DNA of 64,000 bases from NCBI GenBank assembly GCA_951406725.2, contig OX597817.1:133176001-133240000 (forward strand), given 5' to 3'. A model generated the notes under the pieces. It was not told the DNA's origin. It did no database searches and worked only from the letters and a program-made list of their open reading frames with translations. Made by a program: the position numbers and the translations under genes. Source of the stretch: Octopus vulgaris. Its lineage: Eukaryota. Positions 14,020-57,896 of the stretch are shown one piece after another (within the stretch, counting starts at the first letter, position 1; each line of letters begins with the position of its first letter).

Positions 14020-14330
14020 ATGGTTATGTAGTAACCACATGGTTCCGGGTTCAGTTCCACTGCGTGGCACCTTGAGCAAGTGTATATCCTCAGGCCGACC
14101 AAAGCCTGGTGAGTGGATTTGGTTGACGGATACTGAAAGAAGCCCGAAGGATATATATATATATATATATATGCTTATATTTATGTGTGTGTGTTTGTTT
14201 GTGTCCCTGCCACCACTTGACAACCGATGTTAGTGTGTTTATGCCCTCTTAAATTAGCGGTTCGGTATAAGAAACCGATAGAATAAGTTCTAGGCTCACA
14301 AAGAATAAGTCCTGATGTTGATTTTCTCGA
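14020..14330 (+). mobile_element. SINE family A
   Basis: aaccacatggttccgggttcagttccactgcgtggcacc...ttagcggttcgg...gatagaataag. Confidence 0.8.
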
Positions 14331-18274: not shown

Positions 18275-18404
18275 TATATAGATACATATATATGCACATA
18301 TACATGCATATATATACATATATATATATATATACATATACATAGATATATACAAATGTATTTACATATATATATACATATACATGCATATATATATACG
18401 TATA

Positions 18405-19615
18405 TAAGACATACCGACAGATAAAGGGCACGGCTATGGGTACAAAATTCGCACCTTCATATGCCAACCTGATGATGGGTTTCCTGGAGAACAAACTATA
18501 CGATGAAATAGGGAATGTCTTCGAACACGACTTCAGAGAAGACACCAAGAAAAAGTGGAAACGCTACCTCGATGACTGCTTCATTTTTTGGAACATATCA
18601 GAAGAAGACCTACGAACATTCCACAACATCCTCATCACGCTGCACCCATCTATGAACTTCACAATAGATTTCAGCCACAACGAACTTCCCTTCCTAGACA
18701 TCAACATCAAAATACACAACTCCATCATCACAACAGACTACAAAAAAACCGACACAGACCAATATTTAAATTTCCACTCCTGCCACCCATCCCACACAAA
18801 AAGAAACATCTCATATAGTATGACAAGACGAATATGTAGCATAGTAACTGACTCACAAACACGACTAATAAGACTAGATGAACTTAAAAACTTCCTACAA
18901 GAACAAAAATACCCCCTTAAACTAATAGAAAATTGAATCATAAGAGCAATGAAACTAGACATCGCACAACTCAGGACACCCAAAACAAAAGAAAAACAAA
19001 GAAAACGTTATCCTTTTCATAAACACGCACAACCCTGGAGTTACGAACATGTTCCAAATCATACATTCAAACCTGCCAATAGCCTTACAAAGCTCCAAAA
19101 TGGAAAACATACTAAACAAATATTGCATAAAAAACAGTAGACGACAAGACAAAAACCTAAAGAAACATCTAACAAGAGCGAAATTCTCATCAGAAACTAA
19201 AACTGAATTCTTTGCAAAAGAGTGCGGAGGTGGTAGATGTGCAATCTGAAGCAACCCCACCTACAAATACATAGATGGAGACAAAGAAATGAAATTTAAA
19301 AGTGGTCACGTATTTAAAGTAAATGCAGATATGAACTGCAAGACGTAGAACGTAATATACTGCATAACCTGCCCCACGTGCAAGGAGGATTACATAGGTG
19401 AAACTGGAAATTCTTTGTGCCAACGAACCAGGATTCACCGACATGTTCGACAGGAAGAACTGCGCAAGATACCACTGAGTACATACCTAGCTACACGTGA
19501 AGAAGGAAAATTTAAGATATTTCCCTTCTACAAATGTCCAAAGAACGACACCTCTTTCAGGAGGAATATGGAAAAATATTTCATAACTAAGTTCTCCCCT
19601 AAATTGAATGGCTGA
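18405..19615 (+). mobile_element. Penelope-like element, 5'-truncated RT plus GIY-YIG endonuclease pseudogene (possibly Neptune-type)
   Basis: YRQIKGTAMGTKFAPSYANL, WKRYLDDCFIFW, LPFLD, TDQYLNFHSCHPSHTKRNI, Cys linker ECGGGRCAI, NVIYCITCPTCKEDYIGETG; several stops and frameshifts. Confidence 0.93.
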
Positions 19616-21237: not shown

Positions 21238-23501
21238 TGTTTGGCATCCTTTCTGTCTCGGGAGACAATGGAGTTGCGCATTTTTTTTTTTTTTTTCCTA
21301 GGTCTAGTCCGGCTGTTATATTTTATTTCCTGTTACATTTCTTGCTGTGGCTGTGTAGTCCTATCCTGGACAAACACTCCCTCTGGCAGGTACTGCAAAT
21401 GTAGCGAAGACTGTTCCTGGCTGGTTGTAGTCCCATGGTCTCTTGTTTATGTCTCTTCCTTTCTTTCCATTTCTCCTCTCTCTTTCTGTCACTCCTCTGT
21501 ATACCCTCTTTTACTGTACGTCGCCATTCTCCACGGTTGCCGGCGACTGCCTCCCAACCGCTAATGTTGATGTTGCAGGCCTTCATATCCCTTTTGCAAA
21601 CATCCTTGTAACGTAAGATCGGTCTACCCACAGACCTAGTACCCCTAGCAAGCTCTCCGTAGAGTATGTCCTTGGGGATTCTGCCATCTTTCATACGGCT
21701 AACATGCCCAAGCCATCTCATACGTCTTTGTGTGAGGAGTGCAAACATGCTTGGTATTCCTGCTTGCCTGAGGACATCTTTGTTGGGGATATGATTCTGC
21801 CATTTGATGTGGAGGATTTTTCGGAGGCAGCGCAGGTGAAAGATGTTTAGGCGACGCTCTTGGCGTGTGTATAGCGTCCAGGTCTCGCTTCCATACAGTA
21901 GAGTGCTGAGTACACATGCCTGGTAGATCTTCATTTTTGTGGTCTTGGTCAGCTTATTGTTGTCCCAGGCCCGTTTGGAGAGTTGGGCCATCGCAGCAGC
22001 TGCTTTGCCAATGCGTATATTGAGCTCAGCGTCAAGGGATAGGTTGTAGGTGACGGTAGAGCCCAGATAGGTAAACTTCTCCACCTCTTGTAATCTGTGG
22101 TCTCCAATATGTATGTTTGGGATGTCCGATGTAGCCTGGCCCATGATGTTGGTCTTCTTAAGGCTGATAGCTAAGCCAAAGTCGTTACATGCTTGCTCAA
22201 AACAGTTAATGAGCCTTTGGAGGGCTTCTTCTGTGTGTGTTACCAGAGCGGCATCATCAGCAAATAACATCTCCTTGATCAGGACGTTTCTGATTTTGGT
22301 CTTGGCACGCAGGCGCGAGAGATTGAACAGTTTCCCGTCACTTCTACTGTGCAGAAACACTCCATCATCTGATGTCTGAAAGGCATGTGACAGCAAGAGT
22401 GAGAAGAAGATGCTAAACAATGTAGGAGCGAGGACACAGCCTTGCTTTACCCCGTTTTTTATTTGGAAGGCGGCTGATGTTGAACCGTTGTGCTGTATGG
22501 TGCCTTGCATGTCATCATGGAAAGACTTGATGATCCTCAGCAGCTTTGGTGGACATCCGATTTTTTGGAGCAGGAGAAAGAGGCCTGTTCTGCTTACCGA
22601 GTCAAAAGCCTTTGTTAGATCAATGAAGGCCATATATAATGGCATTTTCTGCTCTCTGGACTTCTCCTGAAGTTGGCGTATGGAGAATATCATATCGATA
22701 GTTGACCTGCTTCTTCTAAAGCCACACTGCGATTCCGGATAGATTCGAGAAGCAAGTAGTTGTAGCCTGGCCAGGATAACGCGGGCAAAGGTCTTTCCAA
22801 CAGTGCTTAGAAGGGATATACCACGGTAATTGTTACAATCACCACGGTCACCTTTGTTTTTGTAGAGCGTAATGATGTTGGCATCCCGCATATCCTGAGG
22901 GACTGTACCCTCTTCCCAGCACTGACACAGAAGCTCATGAAGGTGCCGAAGCAGGATGGTGTTTTTGCCGGCTTTGATGATCTCTGAGGGGATGCCGTCT
23001 TTTCCCGGAGCCTTATTTCTTGCTAGGGAGTCAACAGCTTTGGTGAGCTCTGCTATAGATGGCGGACTGTCAAGTTCGCACATGACTGGCAAGATCTTGA
23101 CACTCTCGACTGCAGCCTCAGCCACTGTGGTCTCCCGCGAGTAGAGATCCTGGTAGTGCTCCGCCCATCTATCCATTTGCTTGCCTTGATCCCTGATGAG
23201 ATCTCCAGTAGTTGATTTCAGAGGGGCTGGCTTGGTTGCGGATGGACCGAGGGCCTTCTTCAAACCAGCATACATCCCACGGGTGTCGCCCCTGTCAGCA
23301 GCTGACTGGATACTCTGACAGATTTCCTGCCAATACCTATTTGCACAGCATCTGGCTGTCAGTTGGGTTTTATTTCGTGCCTTTCTGAGTTCTTCGAGTG
23401 ACTTTGTAGAAGAGTCACTCTTGTATTGCACCAGAGCTGCACGCTTTGCTTCGATAACTGGCTCCAGCTCTGAGAGCCCAGCATTGAACCAATCTGGGTT
23501 C
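21238..23501 (-). mobile_element. RTE-clade (BovB-like) LINE, 5'-truncated, inserted in (TA)n
   Basis: Long RT ORF plus short 3' UTR ending gcgcaactccattgtctcccgagacagaaaggatgccaaac; sharp GC rise relative to flanks; (TA)n on both sides. Confidence 0.95.
21323..23501 (-). CDS. RTE-type reverse transcriptase ORF (endonuclease lost by 5' truncation) with C-terminal C2H2-like finger; no true start codon
   Basis: [95 protein letters not shown]; no internal stops. Confidence 0.93.
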
Positions 23502-23528
23502 AATATATATATATATATATATATATAT

Positions 23529-23715
23529 AGTTCAAATTTATAGAAAAACAAAGATGAAGATAGGTGTAGGAACAAAAAGCATGTGTGTTAGTAGTTTGAC
23601 GCTCAGGAAAAATTGAAACGTCTTTTACGTTTCGAGCCTACGCTCTTCAACAGAAAGGAATAAGGGGAAATAACAGAGAGAGAATGAAAAAATGTGTAGA
23701 GTTCAGTGGTCCAAC
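23529..23715 (-). mobile_element. Penelope-type pseudo-LTR remnant with variant minimal hammerhead (23622-23657)
   Basis: Minus strand CUUU-CUGUUGA-A-GAGC-GUAG-GCUC-GAAA-CG-UA-AAAG; a decayed plus-strand copy lies at ~7170-7295. Confidence 0.55.
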
Positions 23716-26329: not shown

Positions 26330-26645
26330 CGCTTTGTTGGTTACGATGACGACAGTTCCAGATGATCCGATAAATGGAATTGCCTGCCAGTGAAATTAGT
26401 GTACAAGTGACTGAGCATTCCACAGACACATTTACCATTAAAGTAGTTCCCTGGAAACTTCAGTGTGGCACAGAGTGTGACAAGGCTGGCCCTTTTCAAA
26501 TACAGATACAGCTAATTTTTGCCAGCTGAGTGGATGGAGCATCGTGAAATAAAGTATCTTGCTTAAGGGCACAACGTGCCGCCACGAATTGAACTCACAA
26601 ACATACGATCGTGGACAGCATACGCTAATCACTAAGCCACGCGCA
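26330..26645 (-). mobile_element. SINE related to family C
   Basis: ggttacgatgacgacagttccagatgatccgataaatggaa...gtgactgagcattccacagacac shared with 2240-2400; tRNA-like head on the minus strand at ~26590-26645. Confidence 0.65.
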
Positions 26646-28220: not shown

Positions 28221-28928
28221 AATAATGATGATGATTATGATGATGATGATGGCATTTAAATAATTTATCTATTACCCTTGTTTATAAGTTGTATATATAT
28301 ATATAAAACTGAGAATGTGTGTCTGTCTGTTTGTCTGTGAGAATCGCTAAAACCAATTTCATTCAAATTTTATACATGCCTTACTTAGGGTCCAGGGACT
28401 GTCATGGGCAAAACAATTTCTAACTTCTTGCCTAGGGCGAGCCCACAGCAATATCATATCTTCCCCACTATTTCAGTATTACGTGGTAAAAGTGAAACAA
28501 AAACATCTCCCTATTGTAATGTCAGATACTTTCACTTTAATACTGAAACTATTGAAGTCAAACTATTATATAAGAGTGATGAACCATTAACAGTGGTCAT
28601 CCATTTTGCTAGAAGAAGATTCGCTATGGTCTTATATGTTTTTCAATTCATATTAATCAAATTAATATTCAATTTCTCGCGCTTATTATTTTAAATTTAA
28701 ATTTAAACCCAGTACCATGTTTTGGAACGAAGTTTGTTACCACACAACCACACCTGCACCTATGTATGTGTGTGTATGTGTGTATAGCTGTATATGTATA
28801 CATTTATTTCTATACGTATAGATGTATATGTATACATGTATATGCATAGATGTATATATATATAGATGTACATGTAATATGTACACATATATATTCACAT
28901 ATATACATGCATACATGTATACACCTAT

Positions 28929-28959
<31 letters not shown>

Positions 28960-28964
28960 TACAT

Positions 28965-30003
<1,039 letters not shown>

Positions 30004-30103: not shown

Positions 30104-30724
30104 ATATGTGTACATTCATATTTATTATATCAAAGACAATGTCTTTATGTGTTCGTGTATTACTTATACATTCGAAGACTGCTGCACCGATCATAATGAA
30201 ATTTGGAACACAAAATCAAAGCCCAGGGAGAAGGGTAATGCTGTGTGTTTCATACAATTTCATGGACCAAAATTTCTGAATGGATCCTTATGATATTTGA
30301 AACTTAGATTCAATGCATAAGGGCGGGTATAATGCAATATGTTTGGTTTGAATTGCGGGTGGCTTAAAGGGGGCAGAAACCCCTATGAAAATTCATAAAT
30401 TTTTGATGTTGATGAAATTTCAACCATGGGTAATTGACACACATCAAGAAGTATTCTCAAAGTTTCCACTTCACATTCTAAGACACCTTAATGGGGGCCT
30501 TAACTCCCAAATTTCAGTCATTTCTTTTATGATCCAAAACTAACTCAAAAGTACTGAATGGATCTTTACGAAATTTGGAAATTATATTCTATGCATAAGG
30601 GCCACAACCCCCATGACGATTCATATATTTTTGCTGCTGATGAAATTTTAACCATAGATATCAGATACAAATGAAGTAATTTTTATAAAAATTTCATTTT
30701 CTTACAAGTTATAAAAACACCTCC

Positions 30725-31567
30725 ATGGGGACTTACCCACAATTTTGTCATTTTATCCTTAGAGTAAGGAACTTACCAAAAATGTTTTTTAGAATTCTGA
30801 AGAACTTCCCAAGGAATCATAAGTACTATAGTATTTGCAACAAGTCAACGATCAAGTTCTCTTACTCTGTAATGCCGAACTTTGCTTCGATTATTGCATC
30901 AATCAATAGAAGCAAGTTTGCTGGGCGGGATAGCTGGAAAAGTTCCTTTGAGGATGACCAAGGACCTGCGAATAATAATTCTGTAACGCCTAATGTCAAT
31001 TGTACAAACAGTCTGCCTTTACCAGATTTATCGAACCTAAGTAATAAGGGCAGATTTGATGGAATGAAAAGGGGAAACCTGTCTAGAACTGATTATACAA
31101 AAAGTAAAGATAACAATAGAAATAAAACTAGGAAAGGCCCCGGGAAGAAATGTAATTGTAGGAACCCCGAAATATGTCCTTTAGATTGTTCCTGTCTAGT
31201 TACTAACGTCATATATAAATGTGTAGTCAAGGACGAGGATAAGTTAAATAAATTTTATATAGGTAGCACGGTAGATTTTAAGGCTAGATATAGATCGCAT
31301 ATGAGCTCATTTTCTAACGATAAATATTGTAATTCAACAACACTTGCATCCCATATACATAATTTGAAGAATAATAAGAATTATTATCTAGAATGGTCCA
31401 TTGTCTCAAAAACTCCAAATTTCAAAGGAAATATTAGCAAATGTAAGCCGTGCATAAGGGAATCCCTTACCATCCTTAGGTGTTATGGACCACACACTCT
31501 GAATAAATTTACTGACGTGATTTCTTTTTGCATCCATAAATTTTCATCAACATTCTTAAAAGTGTAA
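30725..31567 (+). CDS. Penelope-like C-terminal ORF fragment (RT thumb, Cys linker, GIY-YIG endonuclease); first codons probably come from the adjacent repeat
   Basis: FPRNHKYYSICNKSTIKFSYSVMPN, KCNCRNPEICPLDCSCLVTNVIYKCVV, FYIGSTVDFKARYRSH, STTLASHI, LEWSIV, CKPCIRE. Confidence 0.85.
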   Translation: MGTYPQFCHFILRVRNLPKMFFRILKNFPRNHKYYSICNKSTIKFSYSVMPNFASIIASINRSKFAGRDSWKSSFEDDQGPANNNSVTPNVNCTNSLPLPDLSNLSNKGRFDGMKRGNLSRTDYTKSKDNNRNKTRKGPGKKCNCRNPEICPLDCSCLVTNVIYKCVVKDEDKLNKFYIGSTVDFKARYRSHMSSFSNDKYCNSTTLASHIHNLKNNKNYYLEWSIVSKTPNFKGNISKCKPCIRESLTILRCYGPHTLNKFTDVISFCIHKFSSTFLKV

Positions 31568-32830: not shown

Positions 32831-33191
32831 CACTTTACATAGTATAGGAATATGGAGAGGGGTAGAGAGAGTGAGAGAGGGGGAGAGAGGGAGACCAGAA
32901 GAGAGACAGAGTGGGAGTTATCATGAGGATACAGGATGAGTGCATATGCTAGGCTTTGTGATCAGCAATGAGTAAAGGAACGCTACGCGCATGTATACAG
33001 TGAGAGAGAAAGAACTATGGAGACAGGAATAAGACAGGCGAAGAGAAGAAAGAGGGAGCAAATGAAAGAGTAATTATTAAAGGGAATGATTGTTTCCTTT
33101 GATTATATTTTAAGGCATTTTTTTCTGAATATCATTATTCATTTTATCATTATGTACTAGAATCGAAACAAATTTGATTAAAGTTATATTA

Positions 33192-33225
33192 GCGCAGGCG
33201 TGGCTATGTGGTGAGTAGCTTGCTT
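33192..33225 (+). mobile_element. SINE family A 5' head (box A), split from its body by an insertion
   Basis: gcgcaggcgtggctatgtggtgagtagcttgctt; continues at 35272. Confidence 0.85.
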
Positions 33226-35271
33226 TCCGCACATGCGCGTTGGTGTTGCTTATTACAGTGAACCGAGGCGGACGTGAGTGTGTTGGCTCCGTCTAATATT
33301 GAACTGAAAGAAAAAAGAACAACGACAGCATAAGCTCGTCGAGGTAGGTGGTTTTGTTTTCGTTTGAGCTGGGTGTAATTTGTCAAATAGTAGTTGTTTG
33401 TTTGTTGATAAATTTCACCCAGCTCCGAGGCAATTCAGCCTGCTGCCAGCGGCTGCTGTTTGTTGTTTTATTGGGAAAAAAGGGGGCGTATCCTCTCCCG
33501 AACTTACTGGATTTTGCCATTGAAACTTGTTGGATTACCATTGAACCTACGAAGTTGGCCAGGAGTACCGGTTGGCCATTGATATTTGCTGTGTGAACTG
33601 TTTTTCTTTTCTCTATCCTTCTGTGTTTTGCTTTCTTTTTGGAGCTGTTTTTGGGTTTCTTTTGAATTTTATTTTTATTCATTTTTTGAAGTGAATTGTT
33701 TATTTCTTTTTGGACTTGTTAATTTATTTGGACTTTTCTTCTTCTTTTGAATTGATTTTTAACATAGTAAATGCAAAAAATGCCATAGAATGGAAGGTGG
33801 TCCCACCTAAGCAATGGATTGAAAGCCTTGAGAGAAAGACGGTGGTACTACGGACCTATTGTAGGTCGCGTGACGCCATCGCCTTCTTCGATAAGGGTAT
33901 TATTAATAAAGAGCTGGCAAAATGTTTGCCAGCCAAAAATTATTACGTAACCAGGGGTGTCAAATACGCCACGGTGTGGCTGCTTTTCGACACTCCTGAG
34001 GAGGCTTGCACTGTGGCAGGCCAGCCCCTAGAAAGGGAGTAGGTTTTGTTTCTTCCCACATATCGTAGGAAGAAGGTGATAAGGGCCTGGGTATGTGGTT
34101 TTCCCCCGGGCATCGAAGCAGGGTGGATTGCAGATGCCATCCGACGGGGCCTGGGAGATAGCGGGCTCAAGCTTTTAGATATAGAGATAAAGCCTGCGGT
34201 CGACTGGGAGGGTGCAAAAGCAACTTTGACCCGATGGACTCCAGTGCCCGCGGGTGAAATGGCTTTCCCGGACTTTTTTTAAATGGATGGCTCAAGGTAT
34301 CCAGTGATACTTGAGGGTCGCCCCCCCCCAAGTGTCACTCGTGCCTGGGGTCAGGCCACATGAAGGAGGACTGCCCCCGGGGCCGTGGTAAGGTCCCGGG
34401 GCAGGGAAAGGTCCTCCGCTCTCCCATTGCAGGGAGAAACGGCGAAAGTCGTTGAGGCATCGGCCTCAACGAGAAGGAAAAGAAAGGTGAGCAACAATGG
34501 TTGCTCACCAACAGACGCGCAGGTTGTGAGAGAGGAGGAGGACCCCCCCCCCCCGGGTGTTCCGGTGGAGGCTCCGACTCCCGCACCCGTAAAAGGAAAA
34601 AGAGAAGGAAGAGAAACGAGAGATGGTCGACGGATATCACTGTGCCACTGACTGAACCCGATGCTCCTCCGATGGAAGGTGTGCAACAGGAGCGAGAGGC
34701 TCTGCCAGTGTGAATTGTGCCACTGACAGAGCGGGCTGAGACCCCCCCCCGTGAGGAGGACGTGAAACCCGTCGTTTTCTATCTCAGGGAAGGGCCTGTC
34801 GAGAAGTGCTTGGACGGTCTTCCAGGCCGAGAACGATTGGACTCGGTTTGTATAGACTGTCCAGACTGGCCTCCGCAGGTGGCTGCGGACGTCGTGAGTC
34901 AGAAGGAACTGTTCGAGGTCATGGTCACCTGCAATAAGGAAGATTTTGCTTTCCTCTTTCCGGGCCCCGACCTGCCGATGCAGGCTTTCCTGCAGGTGGT
35001 GCGTAATTTGCTTGGGGGCTCCGATGAGGATTGATCTTATAGATTGTGTGTATATTGAATAATTTATTATATATATTTGTAATGGACTATTAAGTCCAAT
35101 AATTGTCGTTTTTGATGAAAAAAAAGAAAAATGTTTTAGAGAAGCAGAAAATCGGCGGGCGTTTTCTGCCTTCTCTCGTCAATATCATCCTTGTTTCATC
35201 ATTCACCTCATCAATGTATATGTCCAGCCCGCAAGCTACTCTTTGTAATGCCTTTATGGCAAATCTTAATG
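33226..35271 (+). mobile_element. ORF1-only non-LTR-type element, copy 1, inserted in a SINE head
   Basis: ~530-bp 5' leader, disrupted gag-like ORF, short 3' UTR ending tgtccagcccgcaagcta...ttaatgaa; homologous along its length to 54345-56279; no RT or EN motifs seen. Confidence 0.8.
33760..35034 (+). pseudogene. Gag-like (Tx1/L1-type ORF1) zinc-knuckle protein, disrupted
   Basis: EWKVVPPKQW, KTVVLRTY, VKYATVWLLFD, RAWVCGFPPG, PAVDWEG, RYPVILEGRPP, CHSCLGSGHMKEDC (CX2CX4HX4C), C-terminal DWPPQVAADV; stops and homopolymer frameshifts. Confidence 0.8.
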
Positions 35272-35393
35272 AACCACATGGTTTCGGGTTCAATCCCACA
35301 GGGTGGCACCTTCGGCAAGTGTCTTCTGCTATAGCCACGGGCTGACCAAAGCCTTCTAAGTGGAGTTAGTAGACGGAAACTGAAAGAAGCCCG

Positions 35394-35460
<67 letters not shown>

Positions 35461-35632
35461 CATATACATATGTGTGTGTGTGCGTGCATGCGCGCGTGTG
35501 TGTTTATGTCCCCGTAACTTAGCGGTTCGGTAAAAAGAGAACGATAGAATAAGTACTAGGCTTGCAAAGAATAAATCCTGGGATCGATTTTTTCGACTAA
35601 AAGCGGTGCTCCAGCATGGCCACTGAAACAAG
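35272..35632 (+). mobile_element. SINE family A body (box B onward), continuation of 33192-33225
   Basis: aaccacatggtttcgggttcaatcccac...ccccgtaacttagcggttcgg...gcggtgctccagcatggcc. Confidence 0.85.
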
Positions 35633-36079
35633 AAAAAGAAGAAAACAATAAAAAAAGATTATAAAATTTTAATTATCAGATGTAAATAAAAAGTTTCCTG
35701 ATATTAGTCCCAGTGGCAAATTTTTACTTCTAAAGTTAGTCGCCATTATAAGCAAATATTCAATGGGTGCTTTAAATATTTGAACGAGGCTCCGTGTAAA
35801 AGAAAAAAGTAACTTAGCGGTTCAGTAAATAGATATCGATGAAATATGTAGGTAAACTTTAGTACTTATAAATTCAAAGGGCGATATGATCGACTAAATA
35901 TTTGACCACGGTGCTCCAGCTTGGCCGCAGACCAATGACTGGAAGTAGTAAAAGACTGAAAGTACAACAGAAATAGCAATATCGAACAACAACAAAATAT
36001 CAGAAAACAATAATAATAAACAACAACAGCAACAACTGCTTAGTGTAACAATATAAAAAAAAAGGAAATATCACAAACA

Positions 36080-46932: not shown

Positions 46933-47308
46933 TCTTTTACTTGTTTCAGTCATATGGCTGCGGCCATGCTGGAGCAGCGCCTTTAGTCGAGAAAATCTTC
47001 CCCAGGACTTATTCATTGTAAGCCTAGTACTTATTCTATTGGTCTATTTTGCCGAACCGTTAAGTTACGGAGACGTAAACACAGCAGCATCGGTTGTCAA
47101 GCGAGGTTGGGTGGGGGGGATAAACACAGACACCCAAACCCACGCATATGCATATACATATATACGACGGGCTTCTTTCAGTTTCTGTCTACCACATCTA
47201 CTCACAAGGCTTTGGTCGGCCCTAGGCTATAGTAGAAGACACTTGCACAAGGTGCCACGCAGTGGGACTGAACCTGGAACCATGTGGTTGGTAAGCAAGC
47301 TACTTACT
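46933..47308 (-). mobile_element. SINE family A
   Basis: Reverse complement of taagtagcttgcttaccaaccacatggttccaggttcagtccc...gctgctccagcatggccgcag. Confidence 0.85.
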
Positions 47309-47339
47309 ATTCTAGAGAATGTTTAAGAAACCATAAGAA

Positions 47340-52627: not shown

Positions 52628-54307
52628 AACTTATATATGCATATTTATGCGCATAAATATATGCCTACATGTGAATGAGTATATATGCATTTATCTTTAT
52701 GTATATATTTATCAGTTTATGGATATACATATATTTGTGCCTATCTGCAATGTGTGTCTGTGTTCGTACGTGAGTGTGTATGTGTGTGTGTGTGTGTGCG
52801 TGTATACACGCGCGTTGTAAATGTGTAAATGAAATTATACAAAGAAAAGTTGTGTGGTCATTATGGTTTTCGAGTAGAGTAACGCTAATGATACGTTGTT
52901 ATGTTTAAATATATTTTTATTGTCAGTGAATGAAGAGAATCTCTATTAGTAATAGTTTCTTGGTAAATTCACTCAGCAGACGATATAAGACGAGCAATCT
53001 AATATGAAGCCGCACCGATTCATGCGCGTTTGAGAGGAGTACAGAGGGCTTATTATCATGCATCGGAATTCTGACATGTTCAAAAAGGCGCTCCGCATGG
53101 CTGAGTTAGTTTCCATTAGAGTTATTCTTATATAATTTTGAAGAAAGATCTGTATAAAAGTTCGGAAAAGATCTTTAATCAAAAGCAAGATGAATGATGT
53201 CTTGAGAATGTAAGAGAATAATGCGCAGAGTGTCGTGGATAAAATACATGATAAAGCAGGGGAACAGAGAAAGTGCGTGTACGATAGGTGATTGGAAGTA
53301 AGAGTGAACGGCAGCTGTATAGCGAATATGGAAAATATAAGATATAGTCAATTAAGTTAACAGTTACTAAGTATACTAATGCACTAACGGTACTAATGCT
53401 TGTTCATCAGACAATCAAAAAATGCGATGTTGATAATATATGGCGCAGAAGACAGTTTTACTAAGCCTAAAGGTATCAAAGTGATTAAATGCAATATTGA
53501 AATGTTTAGAGTAAGGTTAAGCGACACCAGCTCAACCACACGTTATTCTTCAGGTACAGAACTAAGAGAAATACCAAAGCACATAGTACTTAAAAAAGTA
53601 TGCTATTAACTTTGGTATTAAGTAAAAAATCTTAGAAAGAAGAAAAGCCATTTATTTGTGTCTAAAAGGCGCGATTTATGTACAGCTGAAAAAAAAGACT
53701 AACTTTTTAAAAAATCAAAAATTTTGGGAATCATCTAATTCAAGTATCATATATGTTAGGGTTTTGAAAGTGAACACTGCACCATGTGAGAAAGACTGGC
53801 GTTGTCCTATCTAACGCGTTTTGTTTTATCTTTTATCATACCACAACAGCGCCTTTTTCAGACTCTTCCTCAATTTTTTTCCTATCTTACCACCGCTTCT
53901 GAAACTTTTTGCTAATCCTTCTTTTCTCCGTATAAATTATATAAAAACTAAGAGAGGCTTCTAAGAAACAACAGTCCGTCGTAAAGTAATTCATTTACAG
54001 CTGAGAGGACTAGACCATGTGAAATGAAATGTTTTAGCTCAAGAACAATACGCAACGCCCAATTCGGGGATCGAAATCACGACTTTGTGATCGTAAGTGC
54101 AATATCCTAGTCACTAGACAACGTTTCCCCCACTTTTGCCCATACCAATCTTTTTTTATTTCTAATATTGATTTCGATGTCATCTTTTCTAAATCAAACA
54201 ATTTTAATTTATTTTTCCTATTTTATTGTTCTCGTGCTTGTTCTTGCGTAAGAGGACGACTGGGAAGCGTCCGTGGCCCTTTGTTAATTGCTGGTTAATC
54301 ACGACAA

Positions 54308-54344
54308 GGCGCAGGATTGGTTGTGTGGTAAGTAGCTTGGTTAC
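54308..54344 (+). mobile_element. SINE family A 5' head, split from its body by an insertion
   Basis: ggcgcaggattggttgtgtggtaagtagcttggttac; continues at 56280. Confidence 0.88.
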
Positions 54345-56279
54345 TTCCGGTTAACCAGAATGCAACACTAGTTGGTCTGGACTGTTACAGTGAAAAGATG
54401 TGAGTTTCGGCTCCGTGACTAGAAAAAAAGAAAAATTGTCAATTATGGCTCGCTATAGCGAGCAAAATACTAGGTTCTCATCACCGTAACGGTGAATTGA
54501 GAATTTTTGCTTGAAAATTCTTTTTGTAAATTCTAGTGGGCGTATCTCGCCAGAAAAATAAGAATAAGCCATTTGGATTACCTTTTTGCAGTATTATACA
54601 AAGGATTCCCTGTCTGCTATTTGTGAGGTTTTTTTTTTACTTTTCCCTTCTATTTTTTTCTTTCTTTCTAAATTTTGGTTCATTCTTTTCATTAGTTTAA
54701 TTTCAGTTTCCTTCCCTCCTCTTTTATTTTGTTTTATTTTATTCGGTTTAATTTTTTGGCAGACTGTCTTTTGAACTACTTTTGAACTGCTTTTTGACAT
54801 GGCAGAGAAGGAACTTAAAAAGAAAAACTCTGTCTTAGAGTGGGAAATTAACCCGCCTAAGCAGTGGTTAAAAGATATGGAGAAGACGATGGTACTTAGA
54901 ACTTATTCCCAAGTTCTTAATTCCATCACCGTCTTCCCAAAACAAGTCATAAAAAATGAACTTAAAGAATATTTGTCCTCTTTAAAATCTATATCCCGTA
55001 GTGTCAAACATGCAACCGTATGGTTGCTGTTTGACAACGGAGAAAAGGCTCGCCAGTTTGCGAGTCAGCCTTTAGAAGGCAAGGACATTCTGTTCCTTCC
55101 GTCATATTGTGGAAGAAAATTAATACGAGCCTGGGTATGTGGGTTACCCCCAGGCACCGAAGCGGATTGGATTGAAGATACCATCCAACGGGGACTGGGG
55201 GATGGCGGGCCCAGGCTCTTAAATGTAAATGTATTGCCGGCGGTCGATTGGGAAGGGTCAAAAGCAATTTTTACCCTGTGGACACCATCGGCCACAACAC
55301 ATCTGGTTCTTCCAGATTTATTGAAAATGGCTGGCTGCAGGTATCCGGTGATACTTGAGGGACGTCCCCCCAAGTGTCACTCGTGCCTGCAGCCAGGCCA
55401 CATTAAAAGGAACTGCCCCCAGGACCACGGTAAGGTCCTGGAACAGTCACTAGATGCCATCTCCCTTACCCGGTCAAAGGGAGAGGTGGATGTGGTCGAG
55501 GAGGCTTCAGCCTCCGGACAAAGCGGAAGAGCTCCACTCTCCCGAAGTCAGGAAGAAAAGAAGAAAAGAAGGCAGAAGAACGGGTCGTCTCAGCGGGGAG
55601 ATGATGTGCCGTCTGCATGTCCCGAAGTTGTACCACTTACGATGGAAGAAACCACCCCACACTTAAAGATGATCAATTAATTATCTTTTTCTATAAGGGC
55701 GGGGAGGTGTAAAAATAGTAGAAGAACATAAAGAGACAGCAGATATGCCCTTCACACGGGATCCCTAATGGCCTCCGCAGATAGCTGTGGAGGTCATAAG
55801 GTTTCCCTTGTGGGAAAGGCTTACAGGATTTGGGGAGGAGTGTCGCATATGGCTGGGTGGCCCTTACACGACTTACATGTCCTACATGAGTGAGGCATGG
55901 GAAATGGCGGGATACAGGAACTCAAGCGACATTGAAGATAATGATGAATATATCGAAAAGTAGGAGGTGAAAGACCCTCGATATAGGGTTTGAAACCTCA
56001 TCTTATTGTATTATTTGTAGTGGTTTATAACCTCAATTGTGTGTTTAAAAAAAACATGTTAAGTAAGTGGTTTTAGAGCCTCTTTCTTGTAAGAGGTTTG
56101 AAACCTAATATTGAATTTTAAAAAAAGAAAATATGTTTTCGAGAAAAATCCAATCGGCGAGAGTTGGGTTTCGTCTCTCATTTATTCATTCTATTTCATT
56201 TTCATTCATTAATGTGTTTGTCCAGCCCGCAAAGCTACACATTCTTTGTACTGGCTATGATGACAAATTTTATGAAATA
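54345..56279 (+). mobile_element. ORF1-only non-LTR-type element, copy 2, inserted in a SINE head with 15-bp TSD
   Basis: TSD aagtagcttggttac (54330-54344) / aagtagtttggttac (56280-56294); ends gtccagcccgcaaagcta...tatgaaataaa; no RT or EN motifs seen. Confidence 0.85.
54799..55680 (+). CDS. Gag-like (Tx1/L1-type ORF1) protein with CCHC zinc knuckle, 293 aa; original C-terminus probably continued to ~55960 but is now disrupted
   Basis: ATG-initiated ORF; RYPVILEGRPPKCHSCLQPGHIKRNCP, basic patch EEKKKRRQK; collinear with 33760-35034; downstream remnant WPPQIAVEV at ~55769. Confidence 0.8.
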   Translation: MAEKELKKKNSVLEWEINPPKQWLKDMEKTMVLRTYSQVLNSITVFPKQVIKNELKEYLSSLKSISRSVKHATVWLLFDNGEKARQFASQPLEGKDILFLPSYCGRKLIRAWVCGLPPGTEADWIEDTIQRGLGDGGPRLLNVNVLPAVDWEGSKAIFTLWTPSATTHLVLPDLLKMAGCRYPVILEGRPPKCHSCLQPGHIKRNCPQDHGKVLEQSLDAISLTRSKGEVDVVEEASASGQSGRAPLSRSQEEKKKRRQKNGSSQRGDDVPSACPEVVPLTMEETTPHLKMIN

Positions 56280-56426
56280 AAGTAGTTTGGTTACCAACCA
56301 CATGGTTCCGGGTTCAATCCCATTGCGTGACACCTTGGGCAAGCGTCTTCTACTATAACCTCAGACCAACCAAAGCCTTGTGAGTGGATTTGGTAGACAG
56401 AAACTGGAAGAAGCCCGTCGTATATA

Positions 56427-56476
<50 letters not shown>

Positions 56477-56705
56477 GTGTGTGTGTATGTGTATGTGTGT
56501 GTGTATGTGTGTGTATATGTTTGTGTGTCTGTGTTTGTACCCCCACCGATGGTGGTGTGCTTACGTCCCCGTAACTTAGCGGTTCGGCAAAAGACACCGA
56601 TGGAATAAGTACTAGACTTACAAAGAATAAGTCCTGGGGTCAATTTGTTCGACTAAAGGCGGTGCTCCACCATGGCCGCAGTCAAATGACTGAAACAAGT
56701 AATAG
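56280..56705 (+). mobile_element. SINE family A body, continuation of 54308-54344
   Basis: ccaaccacatggttccgggttcaatccc...ggcggtgctccaccatggccgcagtcaaatgactgaaacaag. Confidence 0.88.
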
Positions 56706-57896
56706 AGAAGAAATATTGTAATGCTATTACTGAATCAGCAAGCTCAGGACATTTATGAATTGTATAATTATACAAGACAATTCGTTCAAATTTAAAAAAA
56801 GAGGTTATAATTAAAACGGCGTGCGATAAGCGATCCAGTGTTAGGCTAAGATGTCATTAAGCGGCTTTATGATTGGGAGGTATAAAGTTATCAAGTTTAG
56901 AGGAGCAGGTTTAGGATTATCAAACAAAAAAAGACGAAATGGGATGAAAGCACATCCCAGTGGTGAAGATCTTAGTCTAAAACAGTTTTCTTGGGATTTA
57001 GAGATATTTCCCTTCATCAATAAATTTTAAACTCTAGTAGATTGATACTAAATTGATAATCAAATTTCGTGGTTCTGTGTGTCACATGAAAATATAAAGT
57101 GTATAATTCTCACCTTGATATTTTAAATGTTTTGCTTGGATAATGAAATGACTCTGAGGTAATAAAATGACTTCAGCTCAGTTAATTCGGTTTGAAGTGG
57201 TGTCTCCCATGGAATTTCTTATAGTAATCTTCATTTTTACTTTCTTCTTTCATCATGGCAAACTAATTACAGATTCCTTCAAGTTTCTTGTATCAAATTA
57301 GACTTCAATGATCTCTCAGTTTGAATTTCATGTAAAAATAATTCAAATCTTACCAACTTTGAAAAGGCACGTTGCCCTGTGACCAAGTTATTGCATATAC
57401 GATCGCAAGATCGAGATTTCGATTCCTGGAGTGGGTGGCGCGTTGTATTATTTTGTTAAACTCTTCATTTCACGTTGCTCCAGTTCACTCAGCTGTAAAT
57501 AAATAACTCTGTGACGGAGTGTCCAGTTCGGGTGGGGGGTTGTGGCCACGTCTGCGCTTGTAATGGCCAACGGTTGATGATGAAGAATAATCTTAAAAAG
57601 CAACAAAAGACTTCAGAGTTCTCCATAAAACCCAAATGGTTTTGGAAAAGGTTTTGGCATCGTTGCTGTTGCAATCTTCGCCACTGTTGTTGTTTAACAC
57701 CTCGTTGACAATGTCTATCTCGTTACATATCTAGGATTACATTATCCTTTTTCAAGAGGATAGGAGTCTAAGCTAAATAAGATTTAGCCGCCATTTTCAG
57801 CAAATCGCACAACCCTTTATAGGCTTCCTCTGTTTAATTCATGAGTGATGTATTTTAATGTCTGTTAATTAATGCACGAGAATAATCACACCGTTA

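Follow-up and report, generated by a model that had tools for sequence, protein, structure and literature searches.

The window analysed here, a stretch of 64,000 nucleotides of Octopus vulgaris DNA, contains a non-LTR element of 1,935 bp (edges ±2 nt) at 54345..56279 on the plus strand. The element, referred to as copy A, codes for ORF1 only. A T-rich 5' UTR extends to 54801 and is followed by an open frame of 292 aa (54802..55680, +). From 55681 to 55963 (+) the coding sequence continues in shifted frames as a decayed C-terminal part, which has a WPPQ motif in common with a second copy, copy B, described below. Aligned with copy B, this continuation scores 52, a value reached in 0 of 300 shuffles of that frame pair (nine frame pairs were tried). 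The shifted frames up to about 55963, together with the WPPQ motif of copy B, indicate that copy A is decayed and that its ORF1 was once longer; judging from these frames, ORF1 likely ran originally to about 55963. A reading made previously from the sequence alone had placed an ORF1-only unit of about 1.9 kb between two duplications. Its extent agrees with the 1,935 bp found here, but the 292-aa frame represents no more than the stretch of a longer, decayed ORF1 that is still open. Among the 20 largest direct families and the 25 longest inverted pairs listed per region, none forms LTRs or terminal inverted repeats at the insert ends. Near-copies of a palindromic 14-mer occur three times in the 3' UTR of copy A (55978-56114), where inverted arms of 22 nt are separated by 93 nt; they are absent in copy B. 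A hairpin or a small secondary insertion may account for these repeats.

The open part of ORF1 is predicted to fold into two RRM domains (aa 18-105 and aa 106-188), followed by a CCHC knuckle (aa 191-207). The knuckle is the single Pfam domain match of ORF1 (zf-CCHC, above cut-off); Transposase_22 gave no Pfam match. The AlphaFold model of residues 1-215, for which a 17-sequence alignment was used as input (16 of 43 matches used), has a mean pLDDT of 83 and a pTM of 0.70. The top Foldseek matches of this model are tandem-RRM proteins, and the best VIA match has a Z of 8.5 with an rmsd of 2.6 over 80 aligned residues. L1 ORF1p is absent among the fold matches listed, which excludes nothing. The matches of a PDB sequence search are almost all zinc knuckles, and the Atlas neighbours of ORF1 are CCHC and ZCCHC3-RBD clusters at 0.90-0.93. 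With its two predicted RRMs and CCHC knuckle, the ORF1 of both copies is, according to the model, of Type I in the sense of PMC5203782.

Copy A lies inside a SINE. The 5' piece of this host SINE (54307..54344, +, 38 nt) is a head with a motif that we take to be A-box-like and ends in the left duplication. The 3' piece (56280..~56705, +) comprises a presumably B-box-like motif, the body, an internal microsatellite and the tail, and matches many other copies in the window. The two pieces have the same direction and overlap by exactly the 15 nt that are repeated at 54330-54344 (+; AAGTAGCTTGGTTAC) and at 56280-56294 (+; AAGTAGTTTGGTTAC). The repeats are identical in 14 of 15 positions, the single mismatch being a C-to-T difference of the right copy with respect to the left. 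A repeat of equal size and identity (14/15) also occurs inside copy B, showing that such a match alone can be due to chance. Nevertheless, the location of the duplication at both SINE breakpoints and the variant shared by its two copies identify it as a target-site duplication. The 15-bp target-site duplication that had been proposed is thus borne out, as it bounds the 1,935-bp insert on both sides and keeps the register of the split SINE. Two edge bases are ambiguous on each side, since AA may belong to the element tail and AC to an ACTTCCG start, and the staggered cut therefore measured 11-15 nt. The last 2 nt of the left duplication are perhaps a microhomology with the 5' end of the element.

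The element terminates in AATAAA (56276..56281, +), whose last two bases are also the first two of the right repeat. Copy A has no poly(A) tail. The AATAAA had been taken as a sign of target-primed reverse transcription (TPRT). The motif does run into the duplication, but AATAAA without poly(A) is by itself weak evidence for this process.

The origin of the duplicated bases can be traced by a sequence variant. The string TTGGTTAC occurs three times on the two strands of the window, in both duplications and at 26337, where there is no SINE context. In the alignment, the 12 other SINE heads that have bases at the variant column carry C in eight cases, T in two and G in two. The two heads with G (28969 and 28757) read TTCGTTCC, a different haplotype, and TTGGTTAC is found in 0 of the 12. 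Both SINE halves around copy A are of the AAGTAG/TTAC subtype and have a common variant that neither intact copy of this subtype has. The alternative string, TTGCTTAC, is confined within the window to these two minus-strand copies, exactly those that had been named as uninterrupted SINEs lacking the duplicated variant. One of them, at 47290, is uninterrupted at the insertion site but is without the first ~20 nt of the head. The variant can be called private with respect to the 64-kb window, within which it was judged. The absence of TTGGTTAC from the other heads and the register with the split SINE support well the earlier proposal of an insertion into a pre-existing SINE, and that copy A arose in this way is almost certain. 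Were the two pieces instead derived from different SINE copies, joined by template switching or recombination, the repeat would not be a target-site duplication. In Tx1 and SINEU elements 5' small-RNA heads are described as added by template switching (PMC4494074, text available in part). However, both pieces around copy A are of the same subtype and have a common variant haplotype that is absent from 12 of 12 other heads, so that a mixed origin is barely credible.

The SINE heads in the window form two subtypes, AAGTAG...TTAC and AAGAAG...TTCC. The host of copy A belongs to the first, and the head that hosts copy B mixes both. Two near-identical heads with a shared unusual haplotype form an inverted pair about 200 bp apart, at 28715-28766 (-) and 28964-29126 (+). 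By eye, a second, different tRNA-like repeat head, which has no Rfam match, apparently lies just upstream of the host SINE of copy A at 54010-54130 (-). Inspection by eye of the sequence around the two host SINEs revealed no outer duplication.

When the copy A insert was compared with the window by blastn, one relative was found, with 73.6% identity across 444 nt of the ORF and 74.7% across the last ~160 nt. This relative, copy B, is a diverged ORF1-only element of about 2.05 kb (33227..35271, +, edges approximate) that has no target-site duplication. Its ORF1 is interrupted by two stops (34040 and 34280) and, near 34325, by a frameshift. The C-terminal domain of this ORF1 (34714-35034, +), whose frame ends at 35034, is open for 106 aa and has no Pfam or usable Atlas match. 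The host SINE of copy B is represented by a 5' head piece at 33191..33228 (+; junction within 33224-33228) and a 3' body piece at 35272..35638 (+). Copies A and B have the same orientation, are 21 kb apart and are situated in different copies of one SINE family. Both elements begin with or near TTCCG, and TTACAGTGAA is common to them early in the 5' UTR. Searches of the window by blastn, nhmmer, tblastn and a covariance model detected no third copy and no partner 3' end.

The ORF1 cores of copies A and B, compared over 178 codons, have a dS of 1.11 (95% bootstrap 0.78-1.81) and a dN of 0.30. The resulting dN/dS is 0.27 (0.15-0.41), and 98 of 180 amino acids are identical. The two ORF1s have diverged under purifying selection. 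The middle parts of the 3' UTRs are 40% alike. The host SINE bodies of A and B are identical in 105 of 127 positions and a second SINE segment in 125 of 145 (83-86% overall), and the body of the copy A host is nearer to an empty copy (113/127). The unique flanks of A and B do not align. The inserts therefore diverged, as active lineages under selection, long before their host SINE copies did and, as the flanks are unrelated, represent two independent insertions. A single event was also considered, in which a SINE head, ORF1 and a SINE body moved as one composite unit, or A and B were duplicated from one insertion. The identical overall layout would agree with this, as would one B-box variant that is exclusive to the two hosts (in none of 9 other bodies), but other SINE pairs share as many. 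Segmental duplication and a composite unit were rejected, because SINE parts that are 83-86% alike enclose ORFs with a dS of about 1.1 and poorly conserved middle 3' UTRs, and because the flanks are unrelated. Furthermore, the SINE of copy A is nearer to an empty copy than to its supposed twin, T-runs would block read-through by Pol III, and a duplication is present in A and missing in B. A single event is thus highly improbable.

Neither insert contains detectable reverse transcriptase coding, and the two reverse transcriptase (RT) proteins of the window give no match to the inserts better than E 0.15 over 12 aa. An ORF2 with an APE endonuclease and an RT was detected in neither insert, as expected of a non-autonomous derivative. 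Purifying selection cannot tell which master element carried the ORF, and both copies are decayed. A and B might consequently be separate internal-deletion products of autonomous LINEs, the selection on ORF1 having acted in the autonomous parents. However, both copies are about 2 kb long and have the same plan, with 237-315 nt from the ORF1 end to the 3' end and no RT remnant. Their origin by deletion would require that ORF2 was lost cleanly on two independent occasions, and is very unlikely.

Other RT-related frames are present in the window. An open frame of 754 aa at 21323-23587 (-), presumably from an RTE-type LINE, matches Pfam RVT_1 with an E of 4.6e-35, and its RT has no match on the inserts. 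An RT fragment lies at 18346-18936 (+; RVT_1, E 1e-4) and a frame with a GIY-YIG-like motif at 30689-31567 (-). We take the latter two to belong to Penelope-like elements.

The closest homologue of ORF1, and the only close one, is the uncharacterised Octopus sinensis protein LOC115225585, with 56% identity over 97% of the query. This protein is about 59% identical to each of A and B. An N-terminal ORF1 fragment, a further variant, occurs in P0024, a chimeric model that includes an integrase domain. The O. sinensis protein and the P0024 variant show that further subfamilies exist. A profile search gave 2 matches among 7999 scored candidates. No fused ORF1-ORF2 homologue of 512-2000 aa turned up among 3243 candidates at E up to 1, a result of little weight as evidence. 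Pfam detected no RT or endonuclease domain in the ORF1 homologues examined, namely 30 distinct matches out of 43 and two further alignment members.

The 3' UTRs of both copies have a stem-loop with a variable stem and a conserved loop, at 56141..56177 (+) in copy A and at 35139..35175 (+) in copy B. The hairpin ends about 100 nt from the 3' end of the element. Between these two sequences, the only ones compared, 5 of 12 pairs are changed on both sides and none is broken. Under a strict null, requiring five compensated pairs in one unbroken helix, this was equalled in 0, 1 and 1 of 1000 cases, the strict test having been chosen after the result of a loose one was seen. The loose null, in which compensated pairs were counted anywhere in the fold, gave 53/1000 and 103/1000 and is not significant. 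The single-strand folding z-scores of the stem-loops are weak (-1.18 and -0.79), and hairpins at the 5' ends of A and B are not significant (z of 0.58 and -1.40). A covariance-model search of the window retrieved A and B only, plus a weak reverse-strand self match with an E of 0.19.

In stringent LINEs, ORF2p is described as recognising a variable stem and a conserved loop at the 3' end (PMC4176376 and PMC3747384, both available in part). By analogy, the stem-loop of copies A and B is likely the recognition signal for the ORF2p of a partner LINE. It resembles the tails reported there for ZfL2-1, ZfL2-2, UnaL2 and a monocot L1 lineage in being a 3' stem-loop with a compensated variable stem and a conserved loop. 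It differs from these tails in sequence and in its distance of ~100 nt from the 3' end.

The 5' junctions of copies A and B lie within about 4 nt of the homologous SINE position. Counting the 13 heads in the window, the probability of such a coincidence is 0.0004, 0.0008 or 0.002 for a tolerance of 4, 7 or 20 nt, respectively, an estimate that is post hoc, assumes uniform insertion and concerns two insertions. The 3' junctions agree less closely. The SINE halves around copy B abut without a duplication, the body resuming 16 nt downstream of the position of the 3' junction of copy A, and copy B ends 5 nt earlier than A at its 3' end. Because the 3' junctions are 16 nt apart and copy B has no duplication, the specificity may be less than nucleotide-exact. 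Either copy B integrated flush 16 nt further on, or a later deletion of ~20 nt took its tail and the right duplication. Two SINE copies in the window start near these junction positions, at 47290-47310 (-), ~3 nt before the duplication of copy A, and at 14028-14040 (+), at the 3' junction of copy B. Neither has an element remnant upstream.

The common site could also have been struck twice by chance. The sequence GT/AAG is loosely like the TT/AAAA site of L1, and an element with such a loose preference might have entered the same SINE position twice without targeting, the more so as only two insertions with 3' junctions 16 nt apart are at hand. The abundance of SINEs, given as 11.6% of the O. 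vulgaris genome in PMC13282606 (available in part), would favour this. However, the two insertions belong to the same family, are on the same strand and have 5' junctions within ~4 nt, a coincidence with the low probabilities given above, and the window is rich in better sites with A/T runs. Chance is thus quite unlikely to be the whole explanation.

The evolved target might be a tRNA gene or a tRNA-like multicopy sequence, with the SINE heads as look-alike secondary targets. The insertion site lies between the motifs of the head that we take to be A-box-like and B-box-like. Non-LTR elements targeting tRNA genes are known (PMC8869645), and octopus SINEs have been described as tRNA-derived (Ohshima and Okada 1994, as cited in PMC4824008 and PMC4758252; all three PMC sources available in part). 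However, both insertions sit in SINEs, ARAGORN found no tRNA gene in the window, and Rfam gave no tRNA match for two intact SINE heads at E up to 10. None of the 15 Rfam matches across 53900-56800 reached the gathering score, and the best of them lie on the microsatellite. A tRNA target is therefore considered unlikely.

Copies A and B are, on balance, more probably members of a non-autonomous, ORF1-only LINE family that inserts by TPRT by means of a partner LINE preferring the site in the SINE head. In the mechanism proposed, Pol II would transcribe the element starting at its own 5' end, Pol III being expected to stop at the T-runs of the 5' UTR. ORF1p would package its own RNA, which would account for the selection on ORF1. 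For mobilisation in trans, the ORF2p of the partner would bind the 3' stem-loop, and its endonuclease would nick the bottom strand immediately beyond the motif taken to be the A box, at GGT/AAGTAG. A second cut 11-15 nt downstream would then give rise to the duplication. The target preference would thus reside in the partner, and is suggested by the shared site in two of two insertions. As a result of the insertion, the two presumed promoter boxes of the SINE would be parted by 2 kb.

By analogy, the partner is most likely a LINE of the Tx1 group. Type I ORF1 is reported from the Tx1 clade of non-mammalian animals and also from CR1, L2 and Jockey elements (PMC5203782, available in part). As no RT was found and Type I ORF1 occurs in these other groups as well, the clade is not fixed. 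According to the available part of PMC4494074, repeats are frequent targets of Tx1 elements, other transposons among them, and the non-autonomous SINEU inherits this preference. The examples given there are the insertion of Tx1L into Tx1D, Tx1-Mar into Mariner-N4, Keno into U2, and Kibi and Koshi into microsatellites. The octopus elements are like Tx1-clade LINEs in having entered a multicopy repeat more than once at one position and in the same orientation, and in their Type I ORF1, but unlike them have no ORF2. The Tx1 targets listed in that available part are DNA transposons, LTR elements, satellites, microsatellites, U2, U5 and 5S, and no SINE head is named among them. Eighty L1-Tx1 families, 13 of them recently active, are reported for O. 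vulgaris (PMC13282606, available in part); the words 'HAL1', 'nested' and 'target' are absent from the main text of that paper.

A non-autonomous element with a related plan is HAL1, an ORF1-only derivative of mammalian L1 that needs the ORF2 of a partner (PMC5753468, available in part). The octopus elements likewise have ORF1 only, and their ORF2 would come from a partner. Unlike HAL1, they have a Type I ORF1 without Transposase_22, no poly(A), a covarying 3' stem-loop and a common site. The element is not filed as a HAL1, since the ORF1 type differs and descent from L1 would be conjecture. In comparison with SINEU, which is moved by Tx1-Mar, it is similarly non-autonomous and would have inherited from its partner LINE a preference for another transposon. 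However, SINEU is short, non-coding and headed by an snRNA, whereas the octopus element is 2 kb long and has an ORF1 under selection. In its general features, the host SINE is like the tRNA-derived SINEs of octopus (OR1/OR2, CORE-SINEs; PMC4824008 and PMC4758252, available in part), being high-copy, ~400 bp long and provided with a promoter-box-like head. In the literature searched, with Repbase and most subscription papers outside the search and a prior annotation possible, no ORF1-only or SINE-head-targeting LINE is described in cephalopods. The target-site duplication alone is ordinary. The combination of ORF1-only coding, selection on ORF1 in a unit unable to copy itself, a hairpin of the stringent type and a repeated SINE-head site is unusual.

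Tentatively, these observations may be drawn together as follows. The octopus may hold an old and diversified ORF1-only family and a Tx1-like partner that are specialised on one abundant SINE, inserting between its Pol III promoter boxes. The SINEs would then serve as renewable safe havens that are disabled in the process. Retaining an ORF1 of its own and a 3' stem-loop of the stringent type, the family would be a hyperparasite of a parasite. The partner LINE could be traced directly through the hairpin, and together the two would offer a system for asking why ORF1 is retained in non-autonomous elements. For targeted integration, an endonuclease that prefers a site and has a short, defined target would also be of interest. 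If the site preference is confirmed genome-wide, SINE heads join the specific targets of LINEs. In that case the parasitism of one transposon on another could shape the survival of SINEs in octopus, where they make up 11.6% of the O. vulgaris genome (PMC13282606).
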